Source: an uncultured bacterium
GTDB lineage: Bacteria; Auribacterota; JACPWU01
Assembly (NCBI GenBank): GCA_964640155.1
Contig: CAZXEQ010000005.1
Location: 120,001-152,000 of the forward strand
Direction: 5' to 3'
DNA: 32,000 nt
Shown: in pieces, positions 11,699 through 25,047 of the stretch
Position numbering within the stretch: position 1 is the first letter of the stretch
How the letters are laid out: every line of letters starts with the position of its first letter
The notes under the pieces: model-generated
Seen by the model: the letters and a program-made list of their open reading frames with translations, nothing else
What the model was told of the DNA's origin: nothing
The model's database searches: none
Made by a program: the position numbers and the translations under genes

Positions 11699-12763
11699 CT
11701 ATGAAGCGCGATATTCTTCCTGATAAATTCGAATAAAAGCCATGAGTAACGCAACCACCAAAGGTCCTAATAAAATACCCGTGGGACCATAAACTTTAAG
11801 GCCTCCTAAAATACCAAAGAAAAGAAACAACATGGGAAGTTTTGCTCGATTTCCAATCACCAAAGGTCTCAGAAAATTATCAACCATGCTGACTACCAGA
11901 AATCCCCAAGCCAATAAAAAAATAGCCTTCCCCATCATTCCCTGTCCTAAATAATAAAGTCCCACAGGAAGCCAAATAGCCCCTGCTCCAACCAAGGGGA
12001 TCAAAGCCGTAAACATGGTCGCAAATCCCAAAACAAGCGAGGAGCCTACTTGACCAATCAAAAACCCAATACCCGCCACTGCACCTTGGGCCGCTGCTAC
12101 AATGAATACTCCTCGAACCACAGCCGTAACTGTTAAATTGAGCTGATAAGCAATTTGATCTTTGTATTTCTTTTCCATGGGAATCAATTCTTTCGCCCAT
12201 TCAAAAAAGCTTTTCCCATCACGAAAAAGAAAGAAGAGAGTAAAAATCATTCCAGCTAGATTAATAATCAATGCAAAAGCATTTTTAGGGAGCTTCTTAC
12301 TAACACTGACAATCGCTTTTACACCTAAGCCTGCTGCTTGTGTCATCATTTTCTGAATATTGATCTGTGATACATCTACGACGCCTTTCAATTTTATTTC
12401 CAGCCATTCTCTCCATTGCTGCCCAGAACCCTCACGACTCCATGTTTCTAGAGTAGTTCCAAGGCCCTTGATATGCGGGATCAAATGCGTTATTTCATTA
12501 AGTAAAAGCCAGCTAAAGAAAATAAAAGGAATAACGATGGAAACAATCACAAAAAAGCTAGAAATAAAGGCCGCTAAATTTTTTCTTTTGACGCCTACCC
12601 ATTTTTGAATCAAGACATGCAAGGGATAGAAAATGAGGGTCAGAACAATTGCAGCTAAAATCCCTCCAAAAAAGGGAGAAAGAATATGCAAGATTTCATA
12701 AATGAGATAGATAAAAACAGCAAGAAAGAAAACCCGAATCAGTTGTTCACGCTGTGTGTTCAT
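11699..12763 (-). CDS. AI-2E family transporter (PerM/YhhT-like permease)
   Basis: 354 aa, about 8 TM helices. The conserved C-terminal region IPLVGAGAIWLPVGLYYL...VDNFLRPLVIGNRAKLP is typical of this family. It starts 4 nt after the glgP stop. Confidence 0.85.
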   Translation of the reverse strand: MNTQREQLIRVFFLAVFIYLIYEILHILSPFFGGILAAIVLTLIFYPLHVLIQKWVGVKRKNLAAFISSFFVIVSIVIPFIFFSWLLLNEITHLIPHIKGLGTTLETWSREGSGQQWREWLEIKLKGVVDVSQINIQKMMTQAAGLGVKAIVSVSKKLPKNAFALIINLAGMIFTLFFLFRDGKSFFEWAKELIPMEKKYKDQIAYQLNLTVTAVVRGVFIVAAAQGAVAGIGFLIGQVGSSLVLGFATMFTALIPLVGAGAIWLPVGLYYLGQGMMGKAIFLLAWGFLVVSMVDNFLRPLVIGNRAKLPMLFLFFGILGGLKVYGPTGILLGPLVVALLMAFIRIYQEEYRAS

Positions 12764-12767
12764 GTCT

Positions 12768-14768
12768 CTAAACCTTTACATCCCACATTTTCGTCGCATA
12801 CTCTTCCACCATACGATGCGTATTAAAAAAGCCAGCTGCGCTAATACAGTGAATCATCATATTAATCCACTCTGATTTCTGACTCACACTACCTTTACGA
12901 TTGGTTTGATAGTAAAGAGCGACCATTTGATCTAAGGATTCATAAAGTGCCGCGGAATCTTCATCCATTCTAAGATTAAATTCACTGTCCATTTGGCCTC
13001 CTTTAGCGCGATAGCCAAATATTTTCCCAATCCCTGAATCTTCGGCTTCCGCAACCCATCCGTCAAAAGTACTCAACTGGACAACACCATTTAAAATAGC
13101 TTTCATGCCACTGGTTCCAGAAGCCTCAAAAGGTGGTAAAGGATTATTCAACCAAACATCCACAGAGCTTGTGAGTAATTTTCCAAAGTAAGTATCGTAA
13201 TTTTCCAGCATGATGACTTTAAGATGATCATACTGCATATTCAGTTCATCAATTCTAGAAAGCATATCACTGATAATATGCATTCCCACATTGTCATTGG
13301 GATGAGCTTTACCTGCAATCAAAATTTGAATAGGCCCTTTATCTCTCGCAATTTCTAAAAGCTTATCCACATGCTGCAGCAAAAGACTTGGGCGTTTATA
13401 ACTTGCAATTCTTCTGGCCCAAGCAATGGTAAAAATATCTTTTCCCATTTTCCATGAAGAAAGCAAATGACAAAGTTTTTCTTTATTTTCTTGATGTGCC
13501 TTCCAAAGACCTTCTCGAAAAGATTCATCATGAAGCAACTTCTCTACTTTTTTTAAACAAGTAGGATCTTTTCTCCAAGAACCGATCTTGCCCTGAAACT
13601 CATCTAAAAGTTTTGCTATCGACTCTGAGACCCATGTCAAATGATGCACTCCATTTGTAATCGCTTTTAATTTCTCTTTAAACATAGGAAATTGAAGTTG
13701 TGTTACTTCCCCATGAAGTTGAGAAACTGCATTAATCTTTGAAGTTGCATTCATGGCTAAATGCGTCAAATTAATCATTTCAGGCTGATGAGGATCAAGT
13801 CCCAAAGTGCGTATGAGATTCATTTTATCTTCAGGCAAAATTTCTTCTGCTAAATGAAGAGAAAAACGATCGTGACCTGCCGCAACAGGAGTATGACAGG
13901 TATAACCAAATTTCTTTTGCAAACCGTCTCTTTCATTCTCACTCAAACCACACGCTTTTTCAATATAGGCAAACGCAGCATGCCCTTCATTCAAATGATA
14001 CCAATCAATAGAGTATCCCAATTCATCCAAGGCTAGAATGCCACCCATTCCCAAAATGGTTCTCTGCAAAAATTTCCACCATTCGCTATCACTTCGATAA
14101 AGTCGATGGGTTAATTTACGAATCTCATCTGAATTTTCAGGCAGATTAGAATCTAAAAGTACTAAAGGAATAACATGTTTTTCATCATGGCTATAAACAT
14201 AATATTTCCAGAGCTTCAGATGAATAGTATCGCTTTTAAGTTGGATTTTAACGCGATGCTTTAAAGGCACCAGCCCTGGGAAATAATTGGGATCCCAAAG
14301 CATGGCCCTAGGAACTTGCCCATCATGAAACAAAAACTTTTGTTCAAAATACCCCTCATGCCAGAGAATACCAATCCCCACCAAAGAAACACCTAAATCA
14401 ACAGAACTTTTTAATGTATCCCCTGCTAAAACACCCAATCCTCCACTATAAATAGGGAGATCCGGGGGCCTTTCAATATGAAGCCCGTGGAAATAATCCA
14501 TCGCACGCATGTTTGAAAATACTTCATGATCATAGTGCATGTTTTTGGGATTGACTGACTTCACCGCTTTGAAAGGATGATAAATATTAGGGGCAAGACC
14601 ATATTCCATTGAGAAATAGGCAATGGAACGAATATCAGATGAAAGCAAAGCTTCTTCCGATTTTTTGAGAACACTCATGGGACGACCAAAAAATGATTTC
14701 TCATCAATATCATCTTCGTATCGCTCTTCCCAATTTTCAATTTGGGAAATCCACTTGCTTTGAGGCAT
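12768..14768 (-). CDS. glgP: alpha-glucan phosphorylase (GT35, short 'alpha-glucan family' type)
   Basis: IAYFSMEYGL, YSGGLGVLAGD and the PLP-lysine region FEASGTSGMKAILNG. 666 aa. Confidence 0.9.
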   Translation of the reverse strand: MPQSKWISQIENWEERYEDDIDEKSFFGRPMSVLKKSEEALLSSDIRSIAYFSMEYGLAPNIYHPFKAVKSVNPKNMHYDHEVFSNMRAMDYFHGLHIERPPDLPIYSGGLGVLAGDTLKSSVDLGVSLVGIGILWHEGYFEQKFLFHDGQVPRAMLWDPNYFPGLVPLKHRVKIQLKSDTIHLKLWKYYVYSHDEKHVIPLVLLDSNLPENSDEIRKLTHRLYRSDSEWWKFLQRTILGMGGILALDELGYSIDWYHLNEGHAAFAYIEKACGLSENERDGLQKKFGYTCHTPVAAGHDRFSLHLAEEILPEDKMNLIRTLGLDPHQPEMINLTHLAMNATSKINAVSQLHGEVTQLQFPMFKEKLKAITNGVHHLTWVSESIAKLLDEFQGKIGSWRKDPTCLKKVEKLLHDESFREGLWKAHQENKEKLCHLLSSWKMGKDIFTIAWARRIASYKRPSLLLQHVDKLLEIARDKGPIQILIAGKAHPNDNVGMHIISDMLSRIDELNMQYDHLKVIMLENYDTYFGKLLTSSVDVWLNNPLPPFEASGTSGMKAILNGVVQLSTFDGWVAEAEDSGIGKIFGYRAKGGQMDSEFNLRMDEDSAALYESLDQMVALYYQTNRKGSVSQKSEWINMMIHCISAAGFFNTHRMVEEYATKMWDVKV

Positions 14769-14830: not shown

Positions 14831-15820
14831 CTAAACGGAAAGCTCAACCCCTTCTTCAACCGTAAACCCCATCGACTGAATCATAGATTGGGCTTCTTCT
14901 ACTTGTTGCCCCGGTGTTGTTAAATATCCTTCGATAAAAATAGAATTCGCTGGGTAAATTGCAAATCTTTGCATTTCTTTTAAATTAAATTCACGTCCAC
15001 CCGCAGCTCGAATCTCTTTTGTAGGATTCAAAAACCGAAAAAGACTTAAAACCAAAAGACCTTTTGTCGCATCAACACTTTTAGATTTTTGAAGAGGGGT
15101 TCCATCAATCGGATGAAGAAAATTAATTGGGATAGAATCGATATCCATTTTTTGAGTCGTAAACGCTAAATCTAAAATATCTTCGTCTGTTTCCCCCATT
15201 CCAACAATACCTCCGGAACAAGTCGACATTCCCGCTTCTTTAACCGCCTGAATGGTTTTAATTCTGTCTTCATACGTGTGCGTTTTACAAATTTCAGGAT
15301 AAAACCGCTCGCTGGTATTCAGATTATGATTCACCCATCCTACTCCTGCTTCTTTTAATTGCCTGGCCTTGGGATAATCCATGAGACCCAAAGAACAACA
15401 TATCTCTAAATCAGAGTATTTTTTCTTAACTTCTTTGACAACATCGCACAAATGATCAATGTCTTTCTCACTAGGACCGCGTCCGCTAGTCACCATACAA
15501 AACCTTTTAGAACCCGAAGTGACTGCCTTTTCGGCAGCTTTCAACAACTGACTTTTCGACATCATTCTATATTTTTCAATAGGAGCCTCAGAAATCACCG
15601 ATTGAGAACAATAATTACAATCCTCTGGACACAAACCACTGCGGGTATTTTGAAGCATACAAAGCTTCACTTTACGCCCATGAAAATGCTCTCTCACTAA
15701 AAGAACAGCATCTAAAACTTGGGGTAAATCTTCCGAAGAAGCCTGAAGAATACTTCTAGCCTCTTCTCGATTCAGCCTTTGTCCTTCTAAAACTTTCTTC
15801 GAAAATGCTGTGTAATCCAT
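14831..15820 (-). CDS. bioB: biotin synthase (radical SAM)
   Basis: CPEDCNYCSQ radical-SAM cluster motif, YNHNLNTS-like VNHNLNTS and GGIVGMGE. I place the start at ATG 15820 (MDYTAFSKKV...) because GGAG sits 5 nt upstream. The ORF-track ATG at 15889 has no RBS and adds 23 atypical residues. Confidence 0.88.
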   Translation of the reverse strand: MDYTAFSKKVLEGQRLNREEARSILQASSEDLPQVLDAVLLVREHFHGRKVKLCMLQNTRSGLCPEDCNYCSQSVISEAPIEKYRMMSKSQLLKAAEKAVTSGSKRFCMVTSGRGPSEKDIDHLCDVVKEVKKKYSDLEICCSLGLMDYPKARQLKEAGVGWVNHNLNTSERFYPEICKTHTYEDRIKTIQAVKEAGMSTCSGGIVGMGETDEDILDLAFTTQKMDIDSIPINFLHPIDGTPLQKSKSVDATKGLLVLSLFRFLNPTKEIRAAGGREFNLKEMQRFAIYPANSIFIEGYLTTPGQQVEEAQSMIQSMGFTVEEGVELSV

Positions 15821-15987
15821 ATCAACTCCAATATTTTTATCCCAAGAGTTTAGCGTAAAACCTAAAAAAATGCCTCCGAATTCTTTCATATAACGTACAG
15901 TACTTCATACACGAAAATTCCAAGAAGAAAAATAGGCAAGAGTATAAACATGATGTAGACTATACCTCACAGATGAGAAAATGATCG

Positions 15988-16404
15988 ATGAATACATCCA
16001 ACTTAAAACTAGCGCTTATCCTTCAAACCCATTCTTACGAAAAATGGCATTTAGCAGGTACTTTGGCAGCTACAACCGTAGCCGCGGGTGGAGAAGCCCA
16101 TCTTTTCCTTGCTCAAGAAGCCTTGCTAAAATACCTCGATAGCAGCATGGATGAAGCCTCCCCTTCGTTTCAATCTCAAGATCTTAATGAAAAATATATT
16201 CATTTTCTTGAAGATGGAAAGATTCCTAAACCTGGTAGTCTTTTTAAAAAAGCAAAGGAACTAGGAAATATCAAAATTTATGGCTGTTCAGAATCTGTCA
16301 AACTTTTTCATTTAGAGTCAAAACTGACACAAAAACTGGATGCTATTCTTGGGTATACCACTTTCTTAGATATTGCCAGTGATGCCAAATTAATCGTAAT
16401 TTGA
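15988..16404 (+). CDS. DsrE/DsrF-like (DsrE_2) family protein
   Basis: 138 aa. The pattern KLALILQT...AATTVAAGGEAHLFLAQEAL...IKIYGCSESVKLF...ILGYTTFLDIASDAKLIVI fits the DsrE_2 family, which has a single conserved Cys. Confidence 0.6.
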   Translation: MNTSNLKLALILQTHSYEKWHLAGTLAATTVAAGGEAHLFLAQEALLKYLDSSMDEASPSFQSQDLNEKYIHFLEDGKIPKPGSLFKKAKELGNIKIYGCSESVKLFHLESKLTQKLDAILGYTTFLDIASDAKLIVI

Positions 16405-16410
16405 ACAAAA

Positions 16411-17097
16411 TTATAATTCTCTAAAAAAAGAGCCCACTTGTTGTAAACTTTCCAATACCAAATCTGCTTCGGATAAATATTTTTTAGAAAGTGAAGTTTC
16501 CACAGCAATGCATGTCACACCAGCTGCTTTAGCAGAGCGAATTCCGTAAGGAGCATTTTCAATTACAAGGGCTTCAAGAGGTTCTATCTTCAAACCTTTT
16601 AACGCAGTGAGATAAGGTTCGGGATGAGGTTTACCATGAAGGACTGAGTCTCCTGTCACAATCACTTTAAAAAATCTCAAAAAATCTTCTGTCATCATGG
16701 CTTTTACTTCAGCCAAAAAAGAACCTGTTACAAGGGCTAATAAATAATTTTGATCATAAAGAAATTTGACAATCTCAGAAGCTCCAGGGAAAAATTGAGC
16801 TTTGGGGTATCCTTTAAAAATTTTTTCTTTATGTTTAATTAAATCTTGAATCGTGTCTGGATGTGGATTGTGACCCGCCTTGCTTAAAAGATCGTTTGCG
16901 GTATTTGCACCCTTTTCACCCTCACGAAGATAAATTTCTTCACTGGAAACTTCTAGCCCATAAGCTGAAATGGCTTCTCGCCAGGCTGCATCATGATATT
17001 TCATGGTATCGACTAAAACACCATCCAAATCAAACAAAATGGCTTTTAAAGGAGTTGAAGAGAATTGAGATTTGAGGGAAAATTTTTTAGATTTCAT
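16411..17097 (-). CDS. HAD-IA hydrolase (beta-phosphoglucomutase/phosphatase-like), last gene of the phosphonate operon
   Basis: Motif I ILFDLDGVLVDT, motif II LVTGS, motif III/IV KPHPEPY...IENAPYGIRSAKAAG. It begins 6 nt after the upstream gene. It lacks the DWAGT motif of phosphonatase PhnX. Confidence 0.85.
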   Translation of the reverse strand: MKSKKFSLKSQFSSTPLKAILFDLDGVLVDTMKYHDAAWREAISAYGLEVSSEEIYLREGEKGANTANDLLSKAGHNPHPDTIQDLIKHKEKIFKGYPKAQFFPGASEIVKFLYDQNYLLALVTGSFLAEVKAMMTEDFLRFFKVIVTGDSVLHGKPHPEPYLTALKGLKIEPLEALVIENAPYGIRSAKAAGVTCIAVETSLSKKYLSEADLVLESLQQVGSFFREL

Positions 17098-17103
17098 TAT
17101 TTC

Positions 17104-18090
17104 TCATGCCTCTGGAAGAACAGCCACACGGGTTTTCCAGAAAATGAGCAAACCCCAACCAATCGCAGCCCAAGAAAGCTCGCGAATCCTTCGAATCAAA
17201 CTGACTGAGACCCCCAAAGCAGCACTAAACCCTAAAAGTGTAAAAATAAAAAAACTACCCCCTTCTTGAGTCCCAATATTGGCAGGAACAATAAAAGCCA
17301 AGCCCCGAATCATTTGATGCAAGGCTTCAATAATAAGAGCATCTTGAAAATTAAAAGGAATGTGTAAAAAATATAGAATTAAATAAATTTCTAAAACTCC
17401 CGCCCACCAACCCAAAAAATGGAAGAAAAAAGAAAGCATAAATCGTTTCTTGTCTTTGCCATAAAAATGAGCGATATGTAATTCTAATTCATGAATGCGA
17501 TGCATGATTTTTGAAAAGAAACTTTTCCCGACATTTAAATGCATCAATCCTTTTGCAATTCCTGAAAAAAGTCCTTTGTCCTGAAAAAATAAAAAAAGAA
17601 GAACGAGTATTGTCAATAAAACAAGAACGATAATCAATGCCAGACGCAAATGAAAAGGAATGGGGAAATTGACAAATGCAAAAATAAGGCCTATCACAAT
17701 AAAGAGAATTTCAGACAATGTCATGGTTGTTTTAGCAACGACCAAAGAAGCTAAACTTTCTGGAGTCGAAAGTCCGTCTCGCTTCAAAAGCGATGCCTTC
17801 ACAGGTTCACCTCCCATATAGCCTGTCGGAGTCGTGTTATTAACGGCTTCTCCAGCAACACGAACCCAATAAAGCCTCCAGAAACTAACGGGACAAACAT
17901 TTGTCTTAAATGAAAATTTCCAACCTAAAGTATCCAGGGCATAAACAAGGGCATACACTAGGAAGAGAATTAAAAACTTCCAGTGAAGCATATGAAATTG
18001 CATCGCAATAGTGGACCAACCCACCCGATGAATCAGATAAATAAATATCGCCAGCCCAATGCTAAGTAAAAGAGATTGTTTAATCTTCAT
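17104..18090 (-). CDS. LPG-synthase-TM / UPF0104 'flippase-like' integral membrane protein
   Basis: 328 aa, about 8 TM helices. The N-terminus KQSLLLSIGLAIFIYLIHRVGWSTI...W..L and the internal VRVAGEAVNNTTPTGYMGGEPVKA are typical of the TIGR00374/MprF-flippase-domain family. Confidence 0.7.
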   Translation of the reverse strand: MKIKQSLLLSIGLAIFIYLIHRVGWSTIAMQFHMLHWKFLILFLVYALVYALDTLGWKFSFKTNVCPVSFWRLYWVRVAGEAVNNTTPTGYMGGEPVKASLLKRDGLSTPESLASLVVAKTTMTLSEILFIVIGLIFAFVNFPIPFHLRLALIIVLVLLTILVLLFLFFQDKGLFSGIAKGLMHLNVGKSFFSKIMHRIHELELHIAHFYGKDKKRFMLSFFFHFLGWWAGVLEIYLILYFLHIPFNFQDALIIEALHQMIRGLAFIVPANIGTQEGGSFFIFTLLGFSAALGVSVSLIRRIRELSWAAIGWGLLIFWKTRVAVLPEA

Positions 18091-18112
18091 CTATTCCTAT
18101 TCAGCTTACCGG

Positions 18113-19486
18113 TTATCCTACTGGAGCTTCTTCCATTTTCAGAATAAGAACCAATATCCAAAAAATATGTACGCCTACGGCTGCAAGATAAACGAAAGGT
18201 TTAAAACCGCCGACAAGAGCAATGAATAAAACCATCAAAGAAAAATCGCCAGCCTTGAAAGTGTCCCAAAATCGAATTACTTTCTCCACTTGAGGATAAG
18301 GAATATAAACATAGTCCTCTTTTCCCTTTTCCTTGAGAACTCTTTTAAACATAAAAATCACAAATGTGATTACAATGCCACAGCTTGCTCCCCCTCCCCA
18401 ATAGAAAATATTTGGACTCATTCCCTGTTTAAAAAGACCCCAAGCGATCGCAGGAAACAACAGAATATGAAGAAGTCCATCTACACCAATATCCAACCAA
18501 CTTCCCCATTGACTTGATAAACCCTTGGCTCGAGCCACTTCACCGTCACAATTATCCAGAACATATACTACTTGGAAAAGAAGGGCCCCAACTACACTTA
18601 GAGTATACGATCCTTGTATAAAACAAGACAGCGCCATAAGGCCTGAAAACAAACTCATGAAAGTAATTTGATTAGGGGTTAATGAAGTTTTTAAAAAAAT
18701 CTTTGTTAAAAACCCTGATAGTCTTCGATTGATTGGGATCATTCGTCTAGAATTTTCCAAGCGATCTATTTTAGGCAAAATGATCTTAAGCGCTTTCTTA
18801 AGATCTTCTTCAAAATCTATCTCTGTCCAAGGTAAATCTCCCACTGTTTCATACCCTGCTTTCTCCTCTTTCAACCATTCATCAAAAAGTTCTTCATATT
18901 CACAGGTTACACGACCTTGATTGTAAAACTCATCTAATTTTTTCTTCAAAGAAGGAAGGCTCTCTTTTGATACTTTCAAAAAACCTACCCCTTCACCCAC
19001 CTTTTCATAAGAGCCCTCTAGTTTTCTTGCAATAGTCAAAACTTGATCTCCACGAACTCCTAATTTCATTTCTTCTCCGCTATCAATGAAGCGATCATCG
19101 AGAAGGAAACAATTCCTATCCTTCGATTGGACCATACGCTCCAACGCCTGAACGGGGAAAAGAACATCTGCATCCATAATCAAAAAATCATCGGACTCTA
19201 AAATATCTCGAGCCACCCACAGCGAAAGAACGCTTCCTTCTCTATAGCGATCATTGAGAAGATAATGGATATTAAGACCTTCAAATGCTGATCCTAATTT
19301 ATTTTGAATTTTTTCTTTAAGATGTCCCACAACAAAATACACATCTTGAACTCCTACTTTTTTAAGGTTCTGAAGCATTCTTTCAGCTAAAGTTATACCC
19401 CCTATTTCTATCATGCATTTAGGAACATAATCGGTATAGGGAGATAATCTTTTACCAATACCTGCAGTAAAAATGAGAGCTTTCAT
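18113..19486 (-). CDS. bifunctional nucleotidyltransferase / CDP-alcohol phosphotransferase (IPCT-DIPPS-like architecture)
   Basis: The N-terminal domain is an NTP-transferase (MKALIFTAGIGKRLSPYTDYVPKCMIEIGG). The C-terminal part, about 210 aa, has about 6 TM helices. It carries the exact motif DGEVAR-x8-G-x3-D-x3-D (nt 18479-18547). Confidence 0.8.
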   Translation of the reverse strand: MKALIFTAGIGKRLSPYTDYVPKCMIEIGGITLAERMLQNLKKVGVQDVYFVVGHLKEKIQNKLGSAFEGLNIHYLLNDRYREGSVLSLWVARDILESDDFLIMDADVLFPVQALERMVQSKDRNCFLLDDRFIDSGEEMKLGVRGDQVLTIARKLEGSYEKVGEGVGFLKVSKESLPSLKKKLDEFYNQGRVTCEYEELFDEWLKEEKAGYETVGDLPWTEIDFEEDLKKALKIILPKIDRLENSRRMIPINRRLSGFLTKIFLKTSLTPNQITFMSLFSGLMALSCFIQGSYTLSVVGALLFQVVYVLDNCDGEVARAKGLSSQWGSWLDIGVDGLLHILLFPAIAWGLFKQGMSPNIFYWGGGASCGIVITFVIFMFKRVLKEKGKEDYVYIPYPQVEKVIRFWDTFKAGDFSLMVLFIALVGGFKPFVYLAAVGVHIFWILVLILKMEEAPVG

Positions 19487-19531
19487 ATAAAACTGTCCTA
19501 CCTTATACGTCGCGCGTAAAAAATAAAATAT

Positions 19532-20614
19532 TTATACCTTCAGTAATTTCCCTAAACACTTCAAAAATCTATGTATATCTGTCATTCGTAAATCACCCAT
19601 ATTCGCTACACGAAAAATCTGATTTTGCAAGGAGCCTTGTCCTGCATAAATTACAAAACCTTCTTTTTTAAGCTCATCATGCAAGAAAGAATAAGTGATA
19701 CCTTGTGGTAATTTCAAAGCCGTCAACGTGTTAGAGTGATATTTTGAACCAATAAAATATTCTAATCCTAATTTTTTAAATCCTTCTCGAAAATTTTCGG
19801 AATAGCTCTTGTAACGACTGATGCGCTCCTTCACTGTCTCTTTCAAAAGTTCTTCCACAGCCATATCCAAAGCATAAAAAGTCTGAATCGCCGGAGTAAA
19901 GGGAACACCTCCATTTTCCTGTTCTTTCCAATACGCATTCAAGTCTAAATAAAGAGACCGTCGAGGAAAGGCTTTTATCCTTTCGAGTTCGTCTTTTTTA
20001 ATAAGCACAAAAGAAACCCCCGGCAGACCCTGTATACATTTATTGGCTGTTCCTGCACATAAAGAAACTTTCACATTTTTAAAATCAAAAATTTCTCCTC
20101 CAAGTCCACTGATAGAATCTAAAATCAAACGGTGACCTTCCATCCCTTTTAGCTTTGCTATTTTGTGAATGGGATTAAGCATCCCAGTTGAAGTTTCATG
20201 GTGCACCATAGCGACTGTATCAATACTTGAGTCTGCCAATAAAACATCATTTATCTTCTCAAGAGGAAGAGCAGTCCCCAGGGGGACTCTTAGTACTTCT
20301 TTGGGGAAACCATAAAAAGAAACAATAGAATCCATGCGATCTCCATAAACCCCATTGGATAAAACCAAAACTTTTTTCTGAGGATTGAGTCCTGAAACTA
20401 AAGTCGCTTCTAAAGCAACCGTTCCCGACCCAGTCAGAAAAATAGCCGTATAATCCTTTTCAATTCCAAAAGCTTTTAATAAATTTTTTCGGACCTTAAT
20501 AAGAAGATCTGAAAATTCTTTTTCACGATGGCACAAATCTCCCCGTAACAAGGCCTTCTTGACCTTGAGGGAAGTATTAACGGGACCCGGATTTAAGAGA
20601 ACGTATGTAGACAT
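19532..20614 (-). CDS. phnW: class-V aminotransferase, 2-aminoethylphosphonate:pyruvate transaminase type
   Basis: 360 aa. LLNPGPVNTS...LCHREKEF N-terminus, TGSGTVALEA, and a PLP-Lys region AGTANKCIQG. The call is strengthened by context next to PepM/Ppd. Confidence 0.75.
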   Translation of the reverse strand: MSTYVLLNPGPVNTSLKVKKALLRGDLCHREKEFSDLLIKVRKNLLKAFGIEKDYTAIFLTGSGTVALEATLVSGLNPQKKVLVLSNGVYGDRMDSIVSFYGFPKEVLRVPLGTALPLEKINDVLLADSSIDTVAMVHHETSTGMLNPIHKIAKLKGMEGHRLILDSISGLGGEIFDFKNVKVSLCAGTANKCIQGLPGVSFVLIKKDELERIKAFPRRSLYLDLNAYWKEQENGGVPFTPAIQTFYALDMAVEELLKETVKERISRYKSYSENFREGFKKLGLEYFIGSKYHSNTLTALKLPQGITYSFLHDELKKEGFVIYAGQGSLQNQIFRVANMGDLRMTDIHRFLKCLGKLLKV

Positions 20615-20634
20615 ATTTTTTCAAATTCCAATAG

Positions 20635-20737
20635 CCAAATTCCAAACACCAAATAATAACCAAACATACAATTACCAAGAACTCAACATCTTGTTGGTTA
20701 TTAGAAATTGGTGTTTATTTGATTATTGTAATTTGGG
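20635..20737. repeat. long imperfect inverted repeat built of CCAA-phased heptamers (intra-operon hairpin)
   Basis: Left arm CCAAATTCCAAACACCAAATAATAACCAAACA (20635-20666). Right arm TGTTGGTTATTAGAAATTGGTGTTTATTTGATTATTGTAATTTGG (20692-20737). The loop is about 25 nt. The repeat fills the 100-nt ppdB-phnW spacer and runs into the ppdB 3' end. Confidence 0.6.
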
Positions 20738-21305
20738 TTTTGGTATTTGTTTTAACAGCTTTTTTAAATCTTTCTGTCATTTCTTCAGGAGTCCATGTGA
20801 CCCTTTTACAAGATTCACCATCACTGGATTCAACTTTGATTAATAAAAAAGAAGGACCTTCATTTTTCAAAACTTTTTTTAATTTAGCCTCTAATGACTC
20901 ATTCCAGTTCACTTTTTCTACAAAGGCATATCCACAGTCTAAAGCTACTTTTTCTAAGGAAATAAATTTTGAAAGCGTGGGCTGCTCCCCTGTTGAACCA
21001 TAAGCTTCATTATCAAAAACAATATGAATAAAGTTTTTGGGTTTCAGACTTCCCACCATCGCCAATGTTCCCATTCCCATCAAGACACTCCCATCGCCGT
21101 CATAAACAACCACACGTCGCTCCGGGTGAGATAAGGCAACACCCAAAGCAATTGCTGGAGCTAAACTCATAGAACCAATCATATAGAAATTTTCAAGACG
21201 ATCTTGAGCAGAAAAAGATTCTCGACAAATGTGACCATTGGCATGAATCACAAGTTCATCTTTCAAAAGACTAGAAATATATTGAATCGCTTCGATACGT
21301 TTCAT
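20715..21305 (-). CDS. phosphonopyruvate decarboxylase, beta subunit (TPP-binding C-terminal half)
   Basis: ThDP motif GDGSVLMGMGTLAMVGSLKPKNFIHIVFDNEAYGSTG (GDG-x-N). I start it at ATG 21305 (MKRIEAIQY...), 5 nt after the alpha-subunit stop. The longer ORF-track start would overlap the alpha subunit by 82 nt. Confidence 0.8.
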   Translation of the reverse strand: MKRIEAIQYISSLLKDELVIHANGHICRESFSAQDRLENFYMIGSMSLAPAIALGVALSHPERRVVVYDGDGSVLMGMGTLAMVGSLKPKNFIHIVFDNEAYGSTGEQPTLSKFISLEKVALDCGYAFVEKVNWNESLEAKLKKVLKNEGPSFLLIKVESSDGESCKRVTWTPEEMTERFKKAVKTNTKTQITIIK

Positions 21306-21310
21306 AAATT

Positions 21311-21832
21311 TTAATGATTCGCTCCGCCTAAAATTCCTTTTCTCATCAAAAGGGCTGCAGGAATTTTTTTCTCTTCCATTTGTTTCACACAAAAAACCAA
21401 ATCTGTTTCTAAGCTTTCGGCCGTTGGAATGCGATAAGGGATTTTTACTGTATCTAAAAGTTGTGGCGTAATTTCACCCATCACCCAATGTTCAGGAGCA
21501 TCTTTGATCTGATATCCACGAAGGCTGATAATCAGAAGTGTTGGAATTTTGTAAATGAGACTGAGTGAGGTTAATGCATTATAAGAAAGGCCTAGTCCTG
21601 AATTTTGCATCAAGACAACCGGCTTTTTACCTCCTAGCCAAGTACCCACAGCTACGCCCACAGCTGCGTCTTCTCGAATGGCTGGCAAATAGGATTCATG
21701 TGAGCTGATACATTCAATAATATCTTCAAGAAAACTACAGGGAACCCCAGTGAAAAAGTTAAACCCTTGGATTCTAAGTAATTTCCAAAAAGCATGAGCA
21801 AGCTTTGTACACGATGACACCTCGGTCTGCAT
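21311..21832 (-). CDS. phosphonopyruvate decarboxylase, alpha subunit (TPP pyrimidine-binding N-terminal half)
   Basis: 173 aa. FFTGVPCSFL...IREDAAVGVAVGTWLGGKKPVVLMQNSGLG is typical of Ppd/sulfopyruvate decarboxylase ComD-type N-domains. AGGAA RBS precedes ATG 21832. Confidence 0.8.
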   Translation of the reverse strand: MQTEVSSCTKLAHAFWKLLRIQGFNFFTGVPCSFLEDIIECISSHESYLPAIREDAAVGVAVGTWLGGKKPVVLMQNSGLGLSYNALTSLSLIYKIPTLLIISLRGYQIKDAPEHWVMGEITPQLLDTVKIPYRIPTAESLETDLVFCVKQMEEKKIPAALLMRKGILGGANH

Positions 21833-21842
21833 AAGTGTTCCT

Positions 21843-21892
21843 GGTTAACAGTTAACTGTTTACAGTAAACCGTACACTGTTCACCGTAAACC
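21843..21892. repeat. palindrome / word-repeat cluster in the pepM-ppdA spacer
   Basis: Perfect 14-bp palindrome AACAGTTAACTGTT (21847-21860). GGTTAACAGT (21843-52) pairs 9/10 with ACTGTTCACC (21876-85). Direct repeat CAGTAAACC (21863-71) / CCGTAAACC (21884-92). Confidence 0.6.
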
Positions 21893-21896
21893 ATCT

Positions 21897-23567
21897 TTAT
21901 TTTATATGCGCCCAAGCATGTTGATAATCTTCGAATGTATCTATTTCCATCCAGCCTTTATAAGTATCCACTGCTTTGACCGGATGCCCTTGATCAATTA
22001 ATTCCTGAATCATATCCGTCAAAGAGGCCATGGCTAATGTGGAAGATTCATGAAAAGGTTTAGGGTTTAATTGATTTAGACGTTCATATTCGCTACAAAA
22101 AATTTCTGATCCTTTTGGAGAAAGCATCGCAATACCAATAAATTCACCATGTACATGCGTTCGATCTAAATTTTGTCCGATCTTCAAAATAGCGTGATTG
22201 GCCCCTGTAGGTATATAGCGATACGTCGTTTGTGGAGGCTCTTTCATAATCACGAGTTCTTGCTCAAGCCCTTGAGGGATTTGATCCTGACTATGTGCAT
22301 CTCTCCAAGCTTGATCAACTAAAATAGAAACATCCGCAGGAGACTGAAGCAATTTTTCTAAAAGACTCCGATCAAAAAGTACATCTCCATAAAGAAGAAT
22401 TACTCGATCTTTGATTTCCGGTTGAGCACAGAAGAAGGAAGAAAGAATATAACTTTCTTTATAACGAGAGTTCTCATAATAACGTACATTCGGCAACTGA
22501 ACGGCTTCAGCCTTATATCCTCGTACCACAACAATGTCTTTGATATTGCAAGAATTCAAAACTTCGATTTGTCTTTCTAAAATGGTTTTACCTTTAATAT
22601 CCAACATGCTTTTGGGTTTGTCTTCAATCAAAGGAAGTAAATGTTTCTCAAATCCTGCACTGATAATAATCGCTTTGATTTTTTCTCCTCCAACAGGCAA
22701 AAACTGATCTTCGGCTTCTTTCAATTGATCGACACCTACCAATTCATAGACTTCCTCTAACGACACAACTTTGTCTCGAATCGATTTGGCACAACCTCCC
22801 ATTTTGAGATCTTGTAGAGTTTCACGCATTGCTTTGATAGCTGCCCTAATAGGATGATTTGCAAAAATAATAATTTTAAAACCAGCTTTCTCTAATTCTT
22901 CAGCTGGAGTTTCATCGAAGATAGTGGGAACTACCACTAAAGGAATTTTCTGATCCCATCGTCTGGCAAATTCTTTTACTTCATCGGCAGACTTAGATTT
23001 GGAATGAATAAGTACCGCGTCTGCTCCGGCCGCTGCAAATGCGCGTCCCCGTTTAAGGGCTTCTTCCATCCCCCAACCTGCAATCAAAGCCTCTGTGCGT
23101 GCAATCAAAATAAAATCAGGATTTTTTTGAGTAGCTTTTCCAGCCCGAATCCTTCCCTGCATTTCCTCAATAGGAACAAGCTCTCTTTGAAAACCAGGAT
23201 AGAAACTACATCGTTTAGGGAAAATATTATCTTCAATACAAATCCCAGCAATCCCCGCTGCTTCATATTCTGAAACGGTTCTCATTACATTCACCGCGTT
23301 GCCGTAACCATTATCGCAATCTGCAATCACAGGAAGGGAACTGGCTCTATCAATATTCTGAGCAATTTCTAAATTCTCTGTCATCGTCATGTAATTGGCA
23401 TCGGGGAGACATTTTTGAGCTGCGGAAATACCAAATCCCCCAGCCCAAATAGCATCGAAACCTGCTTCTTCAATCAATTTAGCACTCATAGCATCATGAG
23501 CCCCGACTGCAAGAATCGATTTTGAATTATTGAGAAGCGCTTTTAATTTTCGAGATTTTTCGTACAT
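21897..23567 (-). CDS. pepM: phosphoenolpyruvate mutase fused to a nucleotidyltransferase (PntC/LicC-like) domain
   Basis: aa 1 to about 292 are PEP-mutase-like (WAGGFGISA, DCDNGYGN, ARTEALIAGWGMEEALKRGRAFAAAGADAVLIHSK, VVSLEEVYEL). aa about 296-556 are an NTP-transferase (KAIIISAGFEKHLLPLIEDKPKSMLDIKGKTILE). The diagnostic loop reads EDNIFPKRCS instead of EDKxxxxxNS. Confidence 0.8.
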   Translation of the reverse strand: MYEKSRKLKALLNNSKSILAVGAHDAMSAKLIEEAGFDAIWAGGFGISAAQKCLPDANYMTMTENLEIAQNIDRASSLPVIADCDNGYGNAVNVMRTVSEYEAAGIAGICIEDNIFPKRCSFYPGFQRELVPIEEMQGRIRAGKATQKNPDFILIARTEALIAGWGMEEALKRGRAFAAAGADAVLIHSKSKSADEVKEFARRWDQKIPLVVVPTIFDETPAEELEKAGFKIIIFANHPIRAAIKAMRETLQDLKMGGCAKSIRDKVVSLEEVYELVGVDQLKEAEDQFLPVGGEKIKAIIISAGFEKHLLPLIEDKPKSMLDIKGKTILERQIEVLNSCNIKDIVVVRGYKAEAVQLPNVRYYENSRYKESYILSSFFCAQPEIKDRVILLYGDVLFDRSLLEKLLQSPADVSILVDQAWRDAHSQDQIPQGLEQELVIMKEPPQTTYRYIPTGANHAILKIGQNLDRTHVHGEFIGIAMLSPKGSEIFCSEYERLNQLNPKPFHESSTLAMASLTDMIQELIDQGHPVKAVDTYKGWMEIDTFEDYQHAWAHIK

Positions 23568-23600
23568 AAGCTGACAACCTTATTAAAAATAACAGTTCAT

Positions 23601-23726
23601 GAAACCTCTCAAAAAGGTCCCAGATGCAAGGCGCACGCAAGCGACTGAGGAGGCGTACGTTTACTGGTACGCAGCACAAAGAAGCGCAGCGAGCAACACA
23701 GCAGATGGGCCTTTTTCAGAGATTTC
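23601..23726. repeat. 126-nt GC-rich palindromic intergenic element, copy B
   Basis: Same length and orientation as 9719-9844. Termini are GAAACCTCTCAAAAAGGTCCCA ... TGGGCCTTTTTCAGAGATTTC. It lies 33 nt upstream (minus-strand sense) of the pepM start codon. Confidence 0.85.
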
Positions 23727-23730
23727 TTTT

Positions 23731-23777
23731 AATAAAAAGCCCCGGCTCTTCTAACAATAGAAAAGCCAGGGCTTTTA
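23731..23777 (-). terminator. Rho-independent terminator downstream of tpx (potentially bidirectional)
   Basis: The stem AGCCCCGGCT (23738-47) / AGCCAGGGCT (23764-73) pairs 9/10 with a 16-nt loop. On the minus strand it is followed by TTTTTATT and on the plus strand by TTTTAT. Confidence 0.7.
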
Positions 23778-23786
23778 TAAACCGAC

Positions 23787-24305
23787 TTACACCTTTTGCT
23801 TCAGTGTACTCAAGACTTCTTCATAATTTGGTTCATGAGTCACTTCTTTAACAATCTGAATATAAGAGATTTTGTCATTAGCATCGATGATGACAATCGC
23901 TCGGGTCAAAAGACGTAACTCTTTGATCAAAAGACCATAGGCTTGACCAAAAGAAAGATCTCGATGATCGGAAAGAAATTTGATTCGATCAGCTTTTGCT
24001 ACACCACACCAACGGGCTTGAGCAAATGGCAAATCGCAACTAACGGTATAAACTTGAATATTGGAAGGGAAATTAGCTGCTTCCTGATTAAAACGCTTGG
24101 TTTGAATATCGCAAACCGGTGTATCTAATGAAGGAACTACATTTAAAAGACGTGTTTTACCTTTTGAGCTAGCTAAGGTGACCGGTGAAAGATCATTACC
24201 TAACAATTGAAATTCTGGTGCTTTATCTCCCACTTTGAGCTCTGGACCTACAAGCGTCAAGGGGCCTCCTTTAAAAGTCACGGCTGCTTTTCGTTCTTGA
24301 GACAT
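23787..24305 (-). CDS. tpx: thiol peroxidase (atypical 2-Cys peroxiredoxin)
   Basis: VVPSLDTPVCD peroxidatic-Cys motif, a second Cys in ARWCG, and the length (172 aa). A strong GGAGG RBS precedes ATG 24305. Confidence 0.9.
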   Translation of the reverse strand: MSQERKAAVTFKGGPLTLVGPELKVGDKAPEFQLLGNDLSPVTLASSKGKTRLLNVVPSLDTPVCDIQTKRFNQEAANFPSNIQVYTVSCDLPFAQARWCGVAKADRIKFLSDHRDLSFGQAYGLLIKELRLLTRAIVIIDANDKISYIQIVKEVTHEPNYEEVLSTLKQKV

Positions 24306-24422
24306 AAAATCCTCCTGTTAAATTTTTTCATCTTTAAGGCAGGAAAGTTATCATAATAAGCGGCGTCCAATCAAGGAAAATTGAAGAGATGCAGATCCTA
24401 TGCCTTAAATGCGATTTTCCCG

Positions 24423-24451
24423 TGACAAACCTATCGCAAATGTGGTTAAAT
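24423..24451 (+). promoter_or_regulatory. candidate sigma70-type promoter for the bactofilin genes
   Basis: TGACAA (24423-28), a 17-nt spacer, then TTAAAT (24446-51) preceded by TGG (extended -10-like TGn). It lies about 58 nt upstream of ATG 24509. Confidence 0.3.
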
Positions 24452-24508
24452 TCGAAAAGTACTTACAAGCTTATCTATTATGAACATCAAAGAAGGAGTT
24501 CGCGCTTT

Positions 24509-24907
24509 ATGAATCCAGCAATCGAAAATAGTTTAAGTTCTGATGTTGAGATCAAAGGAACACTTAAATCCAGCAACGCATTAAAATTTGACGGAAAAAT
24601 CGAAGGACAGGTTATTGCTGAAGGTCGCTTCACCTTAGGGTCTTCTGGAGAAGTTAAAGGAGATATTCAGGCTCAGCATGTGATCGTTCAAGGAAAAGTT
24701 ACTGGCAACATCTCTGCCTCAGACAAAGTTGAGCTTAAAAGTAATGCACAACTTCAAGGCGACATTAAAGCTGCCCGTTTGGTGATTGAGGAAGGCGTTT
24801 CATTCTCGGGTCGTTCTGAAATCAATCCCGATGGAAAGAAAATGAGCGACGTCGTTTCTAAGCTTGGGAAAAATGCATCTCATAGCGAGCTTGTAGAAAA
24901 GAGATAA
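24509..24907 (+). CDS. bactofilin (polymer-forming cytoskeletal protein, DUF583)
   Basis: The beta-helical repeat pattern EIKGTLKSSNALKFDGKIEGQVIAEGRFTLGSSGEVKGDIQAQHVIVQGKVTGNISASDKVELKSNAQLQGDIKAARLVIEEGVSFSG is classic bactofilin. The ATG at 24509 has GGAG 10 nt upstream. The ORF-track start at 24389 would read through the likely promoter. Confidence 0.85.
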   Translation: MNPAIENSLSSDVEIKGTLKSSNALKFDGKIEGQVIAEGRFTLGSSGEVKGDIQAQHVIVQGKVTGNISASDKVELKSNAQLQGDIKAARLVIEEGVSFSGRSEINPDGKKMSDVVSKLGKNASHSELVEKR

Positions 24908-24918
24908 ACAATAGTTTC

Positions 24919-25037
24919 CCAGTTCGCCGGTTTTCCGGTTAGCCAGTTTCCTGTAAATAGCAATACGGTTTAACTTAATGTGCGCAGGTAGACAGATCTG
25001 TTTGTTTACTGGTCAACTTGGAGAACTGGTAAACCGG
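24919..25037. repeat. octamer word array and its inverted counterpart in the inter-bactofilin spacer
   Basis: CCAGTTCG CCGGTTTT CCGGTTAG CCAGTTTC (24919-24950, four 8-mers in phase). Inverted related words ACTGG / AACTGG / AAACCGG lie at 25008-25037. A central perfect palindrome ACAGATCTGT lies at 24992-25001. Confidence 0.55.
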
Positions 25038-25047
25038 ACAACTAAAA

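Follow-up and report, generated by a model that had tools for sequence, protein, structure and literature searches.

The window (the whole 32,000-nt, i.e. 32 kb, stretch of DNA analyzed here), from an uncultured bacterium of the PVC group, carries a seven-gene operon at 16411-23567, with all genes on the minus strand in the order PepM-NT, Ppd alpha, Ppd beta, AEP transaminase, fusion, HpnL-like and HAD. The first gene (21897..23567) encodes a PepM-like domain (aa 1 to about 290; Pfam PEP_mutase, E 5.8e-61) joined to a non-canonical nucleotidyltransferase (NT) domain (aa about 296-556; NTP_transf_3, E 1.4e-10). Phosphonopyruvate decarboxylase is split into two genes, as it is in all related loci. 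Its N-terminal TPP subunit, Ppd alpha (21311..21832), matches TIGR03297 (Ppyr-DeCO2ase) with 134 bits over profile positions 1-156 of 360, and sulfopyruvate decarboxylase alpha with 118 bits, and its C-terminal TPP subunit, Ppd beta (20715..21305), covers positions 158-358 of the same profile with 184 bits, its likely start being the ATG at 21305 (MKRIEAIQY...), 6 nt past the alpha stop. The next gene (19532..20614) encodes a biosynthetic-type 2-aminoethylphosphonate (AEP) aminotransferase (AEPT), whose score against TIGR03301 (PhnW-AepZ, 355.2 bits) is slightly below the cut-off of 360.8. The fusion gene (18113-19486) is followed after 22 nt by a gene for an HpnL-like "flippase-like" membrane protein of the LPG_synthase_TM type (17104..18090), and 6 nt past the latter starts a gene for a HAD-family hydrolase (16411..17097). 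The PepM protein with its NT domain at aa 296-556, the split decarboxylase, the AEP transaminase and the HAD agree with the neighbors described in the original prediction. A promoter and terminator scan of 15800-24500 gave counts no higher than those in shuffled sequence.

The PepM half of the first gene deviates from the defining EDKX5NS motif, having EDNIFPKRCS instead (aa 112-121, nt 23205-23234), and this variant (EDNxFPKRCS) is present in 112 of its 120 best homologs. Among solved structures, PEP mutase (5UNC, 284 bits) is its nearest relative and outscores PnPy hydrolase (248 bits), while the TIGR02320 score of 280.5 bits is under the cut-off of 319.55. Because this half lacks EDKX5NS and falls below the TIGR02320 cut-off, AEP production is inferred from the gene context. 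PepM motif variants were not found in the literature searched; motif-filtered surveys would miss the members of this large PepM-like clade, which occur in complete AEP clusters.

The fusion gene encodes a protein of 457 aa (starting MKALIFTAGIGKRLSPYTDYVPKCMIEIGG), in which a PntC-type cytidylyltransferase half (aa 1-245; 18752..19486, minus strand) precedes a six-TM CDP-alcohol phosphotransferase (CPT) half (aa 246-457; 18113..18751, minus strand). In Pfam, aa 2-121 match NTP_transf_3 (E 1.9e-10) and NTP_transferase (E 1.2e-9), and aa 270-437 match CDP-OH_P_transf (PF01066, E 4.6e-10; 40.5 bits vs a cut-off of 22). The CPT motif DX2DGX2ARX8GX3DX3D is perfect (D311-N-C-D-G-E-V-A-R-x8-G-x3-D-x3-D336); the original prediction had located it at 18479-18547, a range that starts at the DG, whereas the full motif (aa 311-336) occupies nt 18479-18556. 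Fifteen full-length homologs (34-91% identical) align with the protein end to end, so that the fusion is no assembly artifact, and in all of them every catalytic residue is invariant (in the CPT half, D311, D314, G315, A318, R319, G328, D332 and D336). The opposite strand within the gene contains no ORF of 80 aa or longer. The predicted joining of an NT domain to a six-TM CDP-alcohol phosphotransferase at these coordinates is thus borne out by Pfam, the motif and the homologs. The best solved relative for both halves, and the top-ranking Foldseek match of the AlphaFold model, is the IPCT-DIPPS of A. fulgidus (4MND; E 3.7e-20, alignment spanning aa 1-356), in agreement with the IPCT/DIPPS-like, make-then-consume architecture that had been proposed. 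The six hydrophobic segments of the CPT half (aa ~274-292, 292-314, 329-353, 359-385, 409-428 and 427-457) agree with six helices of the model (mean pLDDT 84.5). Each domain is modeled with confidence. The placement of the two domains relative to each other is unreliable (pTM 0.59; rmsd 18.5 A to 4MND) and gives no basis for judging channeling between the NT and CPT halves.

By its sequence, the NT half belongs to the AEP cytidylyltransferases of the PntC type. Taken alone and compared with solved structures, it scores 64.5 bits against Tde-PntC over the whole domain, 46 bits against LicC and only 36-39 bits (36.7-39.4) against IPCTs, and Foldseek superimposes it on the Tde-PntC fold with an rmsd of 2.5 A over about 255 columns. 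These scores, like the lack of an inositol-phosphate synthase among the window genes, run counter to the IPCT-like specificity that had been considered for this half. The key residues are in place (AGIGKRL at aa 8-14, P22-K23, MDADV at 104-108, R154/K155, E198 and WTEIDF at 220-225), and the signature G9-I-G11-K-R13-x8-P22-K23 with R154/K155 is invariant or nearly so among the 15 homologs. R13, K23 and R154/K155 correspond to Arg15, Lys25 and Lys153 of Tde-PntC, whose alanine mutants retain less than 10% activity (Rice 2019, PMC6697681); E198, invariant in the 15 homologs, corresponds to Glu196, a ligand of the AEP amine. Another amine ligand of Tde-PntC, Glu104, is replaced by Asp105, as in the phosphocholine enzyme LicC, and the specificity of the NT half could therefore differ from that of Tde-PntC.

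The NT domain fused to PepM is of a different kind. At the GXG(T/S)R pyrophosphate loop it has AGFEKHL (nt 22638-22658), with the second Gly and the Arg missing, and the full signature is found in 0 of the 49 PepM-fused relatives scored. Its AGFE..L, PK, YGD and KGWxExD motifs are nonetheless conserved across phyla, a sign of clear purifying selection. The original prediction asked whether the two NT domains might be redundant copies; at 28% identity over 177 aa they are not. Among the three options it offered for their coexistence (two activated alcohols, channeling at both ends of the pathway, or one regulatory or inactive domain), the last has the most sequence support owing to the altered loop. 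The PepM-fused domain is a divergent paralog lacking the pyrophosphate-binding loop and is probably not the one that carries out the main activation, and PepM-fused NT domains in general may not be catalytic PntCs. The coexistence itself is no new puzzle, being already described as typical of such clusters, in which an NT fused to Ppm accompanies a separate PntC (Rice 2019, PMC6697681; Li & Horsman 2022, PMC8942020).

At the family level, the CPT half matches DIPPS, AIP synthase and PIP synthase; among solved structures it is closest to 4MND and AF2299 (4O6M, E 5e-16). These family and structure matches rule out a housekeeping PgsA/PssA identity, a grouping that the original prediction had singled out for checking. 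The best full-length family match of the fusion is the IPCT/DIPPS profile NF041135, with 125.8 bits against a cut-off of 580, which is not reached. The proximity in sequence to enzymes that act on soluble polyol phosphates speaks against a lipid acceptor. On the other hand, the only basic residues of the CPT half that are invariant in the 15 homologs are R254 and R319, and TM4-6 contain no invariant basic residue able to bind an acceptor phosphate.

The comparison of 85 related loci (from Nitrospirota, anammox Planctomycetota, Binatia, Methylomirabilota and Chlamydiae-labelled MAGs) revealed how the fusion arose. The order PpdA-PpdB-AEPT-PntC is kept in more than 70 of them, with AEPT directly upstream of PntC and the stand-alone NT being 44-52% identical to the NT half of the window protein, and about half go on with CPT and HpnL. 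In two loci (L086 and L087) PntC (235-240 aa) and CPT (211-248 aa) are separate adjoining genes, of which the window protein is the sum; the window gene is a fusion of these neighbors. In AEPT-PntC proteins, members of this PntC subfamily are joined to the neighbor on the other side (P0036, with an NT domain 49% identical to the window NT half over the whole domain length), and since PntC can be joined to either neighbor, the pathway order AEPT, PntC, CPT is supported. The literature searched contained neither a characterized bacterial phosphonolipid synthase nor a described PntC-CPT fusion. The fused NT and CPT are a rare joined form of a gene pair earlier predicted to make bacterial phosphonolipids, and the natural fusion provides Rosetta-stone evidence for CPT as the CMP-AEP-consuming enzyme.

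The two genes downstream of the fusion differ in their distribution. Most related loci have the HpnL-like gene behind the CPT gene, a pairing conserved across phyla. The HpnL-like protein of the window matches PF03706 (E 6.2e-40) and the flippase-like domain TIGR00374 (78.9 bits, over the cut-off of 43.2), and narrowly misses the HpnL cut-off (TIGR03476, 192.1 vs 195.65 bits). As PF03706 is the flippase-type domain of MprF, the pairing argues for a lipid product. The HAD gene, by contrast, occurs with the fusion in the window and, among the related loci compared, in just one other (L006, with the 91% identical relative). It is a lineage-specific addition rather than a core partner, and this distribution rules out the HAD as a conserved terminal phosphatase. 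The closest solved relative of the protein (HAD_2, E 3.6e-31 in Pfam) is the HAD-type inorganic pyrophosphatase BT2127 (3QU2; E 2.3e-38, 135 bits, the next match having 79), and the inorganic diphosphatase profile NF053653 gives 178 (178.2) bits, short of the cut-off of 245. It is possibly an inorganic pyrophosphatase, and the terminal phosphatase role originally assigned to it is probably not correct.

Overall, we consider it reasonably probable that the fusion protein is a bifunctional phosphonolipid-headgroup synthase. What the sequences show are the identities of the domains, their intact catalytic motifs, the conserved order of the genes and the fusion event; the substrates, the acceptor lipid and the flipping in the following route are all inferred. 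PEP would be converted to AEP by the PepM-like protein, the two-subunit phosphonopyruvate decarboxylase and the transaminase, and the cytosolic NT half would convert AEP and CTP to CMP-AEP and pyrophosphate, the latter perhaps hydrolyzed by the HAD protein. The six-TM CPT half would use CMP-AEP as a donor, transferring the aminoethylphosphonyl group to a hydroxyl of a membrane lipid with release of CMP. Diacylglycerol is the simplest candidate acceptor, which would give a phosphono analog of phosphatidylethanolamine; the HpnL-like flippase-like protein would then move the product to the outer leaflet. The product is likely a membrane lipid with an AEP headgroup, flipped by the HpnL-like protein. 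The transfer step has a eukaryotic precedent, as Kennedy-type ethanolaminephosphotransferases convert CMP-AEP and diacylglycerol to a phosphonolipid. For bacterial phosphonate "tailoring", we are not aware of a biochemical demonstration of the steps past CMP-AEP. The same route has been predicted for a Nostoc/Burkholderia cluster containing genes for a CDP-alcohol phosphatidyltransferase, an NTP transferase, pepM, ppd, AEPT and hpnL (PMC5987646) and for the "Burkholderiales_CDP-OH" Group 1 clusters; from these related cluster families no phosphonolipid has been isolated, and the CPT subfamily has no characterized member (PMC8942020).

Diacylglycerol may not be the acceptor, because in several lineages the module sits inside hopanoid clusters, and a hopanoid polyol is a possible alternative. 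The PntC/CPT/HpnL module is found together with SHC, HpnH, HpnA and HpnG in L004, is surrounded by SHC, HpnH, HpnA, IspH and HpnG in L087 and is accompanied by hopanoid genes also in L061 and L065. CPT paralogs occur in hopanoid clusters devoid of phosphonate genes (L088, with SHC, HpnG, HpnH, HpnA and HpnN; L091, with HpnL, HpnI, HpnJ and HpnK nearby), and in a Chlamydiae-labelled MAG (L005) the HpnL-like gene is followed by a true HpnA (TIGR03466, 461 bits vs a cut-off of 367.65). Together with the near-threshold HpnL score of the window protein and the "phosphonoterpene" speculated for Nitrosococcus clusters (PMC8942020), this raises the prospect that the same chemistry modifies bacteriohopanepolyol or another triterpenoid alcohol, yielding an AEP-phosphono-hopanoid flipped by HpnL. 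We regard this version as unlikely: tblastn found no SHC, HpnH, HpnG, HpnA or HpnN in the 32 kb window, L001 or L006, most module-carrying loci have no hopanoid gene within 9 kb, HpnL and HpnA are themselves genes without an assigned function, and the literature examined did not yield a phosphonate-bearing hopanoid. An equally doubtful extension would combine three elements, namely PntC-CPT-HpnL(-HpnA) as a hopanoid/triterpenoid headgroup pathway making aminoethylphosphono-hopanoids in Nitrospira, anammox and PVC-group relatives, an overlooked EDNxFPKRCS clade of PEP mutases, and the PepM-fused NT as a pseudoenzyme or regulator. If true, these hopanoids would be a lipid class that we did not find reported in the literature examined, and the EDKX5NS filter would be discarding a large PEP mutase clade, making inventories of phosphonate producers undercounts.

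Two other readings depart further from a phosphonolipid. By analogy with DIPPS, as the original prediction proposed, the headgroup might be transferred to a soluble polyol phosphate (inositol-1-P or glycerol-3-P) and the HAD might then dephosphorylate the intermediate to a soluble or exported phosphonodiester. The family matches, all to enzymes with polyol-phosphate acceptors and headed by NF041135, would fit such a scheme, as would the co-transcription of the HAD gene 6 nt past the HpnL-like gene and the occurrence of a different HAD after the CPT gene in two Scalindua loci. Yet NF041135 is far from its cut-off, no inositol-phosphate synthase (MIPS) was detected among the window ORFs scanned, the HADs are lineage-specific and that of the window is closest to an inorganic pyrophosphatase, TM4-6 lack an invariant basic residue that could hold an acceptor phosphate, and the gene conserved beside CPT encodes a flippase-like membrane protein instead of a phosphatase; we consider this scheme very improbable. 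To our mind just as improbable is a division of labor in which the PepM-fused NT is the true AEP cytidylyltransferase and the fusion NT activates phosphoethanolamine, phosphocholine or glycerol-P for ordinary phospholipids. The distant paralogy of the two domains, the LicC-like Asp105 in place of Glu104 and the purifying selection acting on the PepM-fused domain are in line with it. Against it, the PepM-fused domain lacks the second Gly and the Arg of a loop whose R15A replacement leaves Tde-PntC with less than 10% activity, the subfamily of the fusion NT always comes directly after the AEP transaminase (in some lineages fused to it), and the window contains no gene for a choline or ethanolamine kinase.

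The preferred assignment as a phosphonolipid-headgroup synthase places the window protein among several known systems. PntC (Tde1415 / Ari1348; Rice 2019) shares with its NT half the fold, the GXG(T/S)RX4-8PK signature, the equivalents of Arg15, Lys25, Lys153 and Glu196 and the adjoining AEP biosynthesis genes, Asp105 instead of Glu104 being the exception. Tde1415, a PntC-AEPT, is likewise fused to a pathway neighbor, but this partner is the transaminase, whereas in the window it is the downstream membrane transferase. IPCT/DIPPS (4MND) likewise has a cytosolic NT followed by a six-TM CDP-alcohol phosphotransferase on one chain and makes and then consumes a CMP-activated alcohol; the window protein differs in an NT half nearer to PntC than to IPCT, in a context of phosphonate genes without inositol-phosphate synthase and in its conserved flippase-like partner, which points to a lipid and not to a compatible solute as the product. 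Group 1 phosphonolipid clusters (Li & Horsman 2022, PMC8942020; Gagunashvili & Andresson 2018, PMC5987646) have their parts in common with the window: Ppm-NT, Ppd and AEPT together with a second NT, a CDP-alcohol phosphatidyltransferase and hpnL. Their NT and CPT are separate, not one polypeptide, and the window further differs in Ppd encoded by two genes, in the PepM motif (EDNxxxKxCS for EDKX5NS) and in the added HAD. The 2-oxoglutarate/Fe(II) oxygenase of the Group 1 core is missing (no such domain was detected in the window ORFs scanned), and AEP rather than 1-hydroxy-AEP is therefore the expected headgroup. The reaction proposed here (CMP-AEP and diacylglycerol to phosphonolipid and CMP) is that of the Kennedy-type choline/ethanolamine phosphotransferases of Tetrahymena, which are eukaryotic, belong to another PF01066 subfamily and depend on a separate activating enzyme, in contrast to the fused bacterial protein. 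Finally, MprF (lysyl-phosphatidylglycerol synthase and flippase) also pairs a headgroup enzyme with a PF03706 domain; its synthase chemistry is unrelated (an aminoacyl-tRNA-dependent transferase), and the flippase-like protein of the window is encoded by a separate gene and has a putative function.

Taken alone, the fusion is a minor departure from a pathway that had already been predicted. It offers a single-polypeptide target to reconstitute the CMP-AEP-consuming step, and the module to which it belongs is repeatedly linked to the hopanoid genes HpnL and HpnA. The CPT proteins of Scalindua and Nitrospira carry an N-terminal extension of 230-300 aa. Its profile alignment with the NT domain is collinear, at a probability of only 3-7% (24% identity in whole-protein BLASTP), and a degenerate NT domain is no more than a suggestion for this extension.

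The 457-aa ORF at 18113-19486 on the minus strand is best described as a predicted fused PntC/CDP-alcohol phosphonotransferase of a predicted phosphonolipid pathway, PntC being the 2-aminoethylphosphonate (AEP) cytidylyltransferase. It belongs to a tight minus-strand operon of seven genes (gaps of 45, 22 and 6 nt after the transaminase gene), which comprises a PepM-like (PEP mutase-like) enzyme with a C-terminal nucleotidyltransferase (NT) domain (21897-23567), the alpha (PpdA, 21311-21832) and beta (PpdB, 20715-21305) genes of a split phosphonopyruvate decarboxylase (Ppd), an AEP aminotransferase (AEPT, 19532-20614; 355 bits with TIGR03301, whose cut-off is 360.8), the fusion of an NT and a CDP-alcohol phosphotransferase (CPT) half, an HpnL-like "flippase-like" membrane protein (17104-18090; PF03706, MprF flippase-type) and a HAD hydrolase (16411-17097). 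The two Ppd genes, which lie 6 nt apart and show the same split in every related locus, score alike with the Ppd and sulfopyruvate decarboxylase models in a profile search, in both cases under the cut-off, and their two-gene alpha/beta layout resembles that of the sulfopyruvate decarboxylase ComDE. Upstream of the operon are two bactofilin genes (24389-26271, plus strand), one of them fused to zinc-ribbon segments scoring under Pfam cut-offs; the sole Pfam match of a 1454-aa ORF at 27619-31983 (minus strand) is a histidine-phosphatase domain (aa 474-636).

The original prediction of an NT domain joined to a CPT of about six helices within a phosphonate operon was borne out. The Pfam matches comprise NTP_transf_3 and NTP_transferase over aa 2-121 and CDP-OH_P_transf over aa 270-437, exceeding the gathering score; the CPT half carries DNCDGEVARAKGLSSQWGSWLDIGVD (aa 311-336, nt 18479-18556), a perfect DX2DGX2ARX8GX3DX3D motif, whose edge, earlier placed at 18547, is corrected here to a start at 18556; and hydropathy combined with the AlphaFold model (mean pLDDT 84.5) gives six transmembrane helices preceded by an interfacial helix. 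The proposed likeness to IPCT/DIPPS holds for the architecture, as the best solved relative of the whole protein, also ranked first by Foldseek, is the A. fulgidus IPCT-DIPPS (4MND, E 3.7e-20), but not for the NT half, which is nearer to PntC than to the IPCTs. When this half was searched alone, the closest match was the AEP cytidylyltransferase domain of Tde1415 (Tde-PntC, 6PD1; 64.5 bits over aa 2-241), with LicC at 46 bits and the IPCTs at 36-39 bits, and the fusion model superposes on PntC at 2.5 Å. The NT half contains the GXG(T/S)RX4-8PK signature (as AGIGKRL...PK) and counterparts of Arg15, Lys25 and Lys153, the residues whose alanine mutants cripple Tde-PntC, with less than 10% activity left in R15A (Rice 2019, PMC6697681). 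The Glu196 of Tde-PntC, which contacts the AEP amine, corresponds to an invariant E198, and its Glu104 to Asp105, as in LicC. The models matched by the CPT half, each of them scoring far under its cut-off, are those of DIPPS, archaetidylinositol-phosphate synthase and PIP synthase, and the structures matched are AF2299 and 4MND; no PgsA or PssA match was found in either the family-model or the structure searches.

About 23 full-length homologues of the fusion were found among 5.8 billion protein clusters, in a Ca. Auribacterota-labelled MAG (91% identity), in MAGs carrying the label Chlamydiae or Chlamydiota (44-64%) and in Nitrospira and others (33-42%); 15 homologues align end to end, the catalytic residues of both halves being invariant or nearly so. 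Scanning one genome per GTDB species revealed true fusions in only about 10 species (Auribacterota and Chlamydiae MAGs, several Nitrospirota and one Planctomycetia). Taken together, these observations show the fusion to be genuine and under selection, albeit rare. In the locus of the 91% relative (L006, JAYRIK010000161.1), also labelled Ca. Auribacterota, the proteins are 90-98% identical to those of the window and follow the same order, HAD and BioB included; the next-closest loci (among L001, L005 and L007) are Chlamydiae-labelled and keep the Tpx and bactofilin synteny. These labels disagree on where within the PVC group the source belongs.

For the genome context, the proteins of the window were compared by tblastn with 85 related loci. 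The order PpdA-PpdB-AEPT-PntC is kept in more than 70 of them, with carriers among Ca. Nitrospira defluvii and many other Nitrospira, Scalindua, Brocadiales, Binatia, Methylomirabilota, Planctomycetia and Chlamydiae MAGs, and in about half of the loci with this order a CPT and an HpnL-like gene come next. Downstream, the conserved partner is the PF03706 protein and not a phosphatase. Two loci (L086 and L087) encode PntC (235-240 aa) and CPT (211-248 aa) in two adjoining genes, and the window's fusion is the sum of these. Nitrospira defluvii and Scalindua have a longer CPT gene (435-514 aa) downstream of a separate PntC (L079 9754-11298; L014 9723-11030); its N-terminal extension of 230-300 aa, with no Pfam match and no glycine-rich loop, aligns weakly but collinearly with an NT domain and may represent a degenerate one. 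Four other proteins (P0035, P0036, P0040 and P0048) are AEPT-PntC fusions of the same PntC subfamily, in which the transaminase comes first, an order opposite to that of Tde1415; their NT domain shares 47-49% identity with the NT half of the window's protein (49% in P0036). PntC has thus become fused to either neighbor in different lineages, as a pathway running from AEPT through PntC to CPT would predict. In nearly all of the Binatia loci (L022-L060), PpdA-PpdB-AEPT-PntC is directly preceded by an MMPL/RND transporter (at roughly kb 3.6-6.7 of each locus) that shares 27-30% identity with the HpnN-like protein of another locus (L088), and there is no CPT close by.

The reading with most support, which draws on these gene and sequence results, the documented PntC reaction and general CDP-alcohol phosphotransferase chemistry, is that the cytosolic NT half would convert CTP and AEP to CMP-AEP, the membrane CPT half would move the aminoethylphosphonyl group to a lipid hydroxyl, and the HpnL-like protein would flip the lipid product. 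The same route has been drawn for a Nostoc/Burkholderia cluster (CDP-alcohol phosphatidyltransferase, NTP transferase, pepM, ppd, AEPT and hpnL; PMC5987646) and for the "Burkholderiales_CDP-OH" Group 1 phosphonolipid family (PMC8942020); the products of both were never isolated. Unlike these clusters, the window has its NT and CPT fused, its Ppd split, a HAD added and a variant PepM motif, and it contains no 2-oxoglutarate/Fe(II) oxygenase, so that the headgroup would be plain AEP.

The simplest candidate for the acceptor is diacylglycerol, which is also assumed in the literature. A hopanoid in its place appears unlikely, as the 32-kb window is devoid of any hopanoid gene, even though the PntC/CPT/HpnL module is embedded in hopanoid clusters of several lineages. 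It occurs with SHC, HpnH, HpnA and HpnG in two loci (L004 and L087) and within hopanoid clusters in two more (L061 and L065), while CPT paralogues accompany SHC, HpnG, HpnH and HpnN in L088 (three paralogues and one NT, with no phosphonate genes) and HpnI, HpnJ, HpnK and HpnL in L091. In a Chlamydiae-labelled MAG (L005) a true HpnA (12367-13362; 461 bits, cut-off 367.65) comes right after the HpnL-like gene, and a paper speculates on a "phosphonoterpene" of Nitrosococcus (PMC8942020).

A pairwise comparison showed that the two NT domains of the window, of which the second is fused to PepM, are not close paralogues: they share 28% identity over 177 aa and so are not redundant copies. Clusters in which an NT fused to Ppm coexists with a separate PntC have been described as typical (PMC6697681, PMC8942020), and the PntCs assayed so far are stand-alone or AEPT-fused only. 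In the PepM-fused domain AGFEKHL (22638-22658; aa 304-310 of the PepM-NT protein) replaces the GXG(T/S)R pyrophosphate loop; this variant, AG[FY][ED]xx[LM], is kept in 9 out of 9 orthologues, with the PK, YGD and KGWxExD motifs intact. The full GXGXR signature is absent from all 49 PepM-fused NT domains scored (relatives from two large searches, P0241-P0510), two of which accompany a canonical EDK..NS PepM. Longer proteins with a canonical NT loop were rejected as PepM-NT fusions upon finding other N-terminal domains. Given the loss of activity in the R15A mutant of Tde-PntC, a putative non-catalytic or altered role of the PepM-fused domain, e.g. in ligand sensing, is the best-supported of the three options originally considered.

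The PepM half has EDNIFPKRCS (23205-23234; aa 112-121) in place of the EDKX5NS of PEP mutases (Lys to Asn, Asn to Cys) and scores under the TIGR02320 cut-off. The EDNxxxKxCS form is common to 112 of the 120 best homologues, and the best solved relative is the PEP mutase 5UNC (motif EDKRFPKVNS), ahead of phosphonopyruvate hydrolase. Since published inventories of phosphonate producers retain only EDKX5NS sequences, this clade would have been left out; it nevertheless occurs in complete Ppd/AEPT/PntC clusters.

The HAD hydrolase, suggested as the terminal phosphatase, probably does not have this role, as it is not a conserved partner and its nearest solved relative is a pyrophosphatase. Only in the window and the 91% relative does the fusion come with this HAD; that of two Scalindua loci is unrelated, and no HAD occurs in the other lineages. 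By a wide margin, and far ahead of beta-phosphoglucomutases, its closest solved relative is the HAD-type inorganic pyrophosphatase BT2127 (3QU2, E 2.3e-38), albeit with a score under the NCBIfam cut-off for this family. The Glu of its cap segment YLREGE aligns with that of YMHEGR in BT2127, a residue that matters for pyrophosphatase activity. A putative role in clearing the pyrophosphate that the cytidylyltransferase would release is at least as good a fit as that of a terminal phosphatase.
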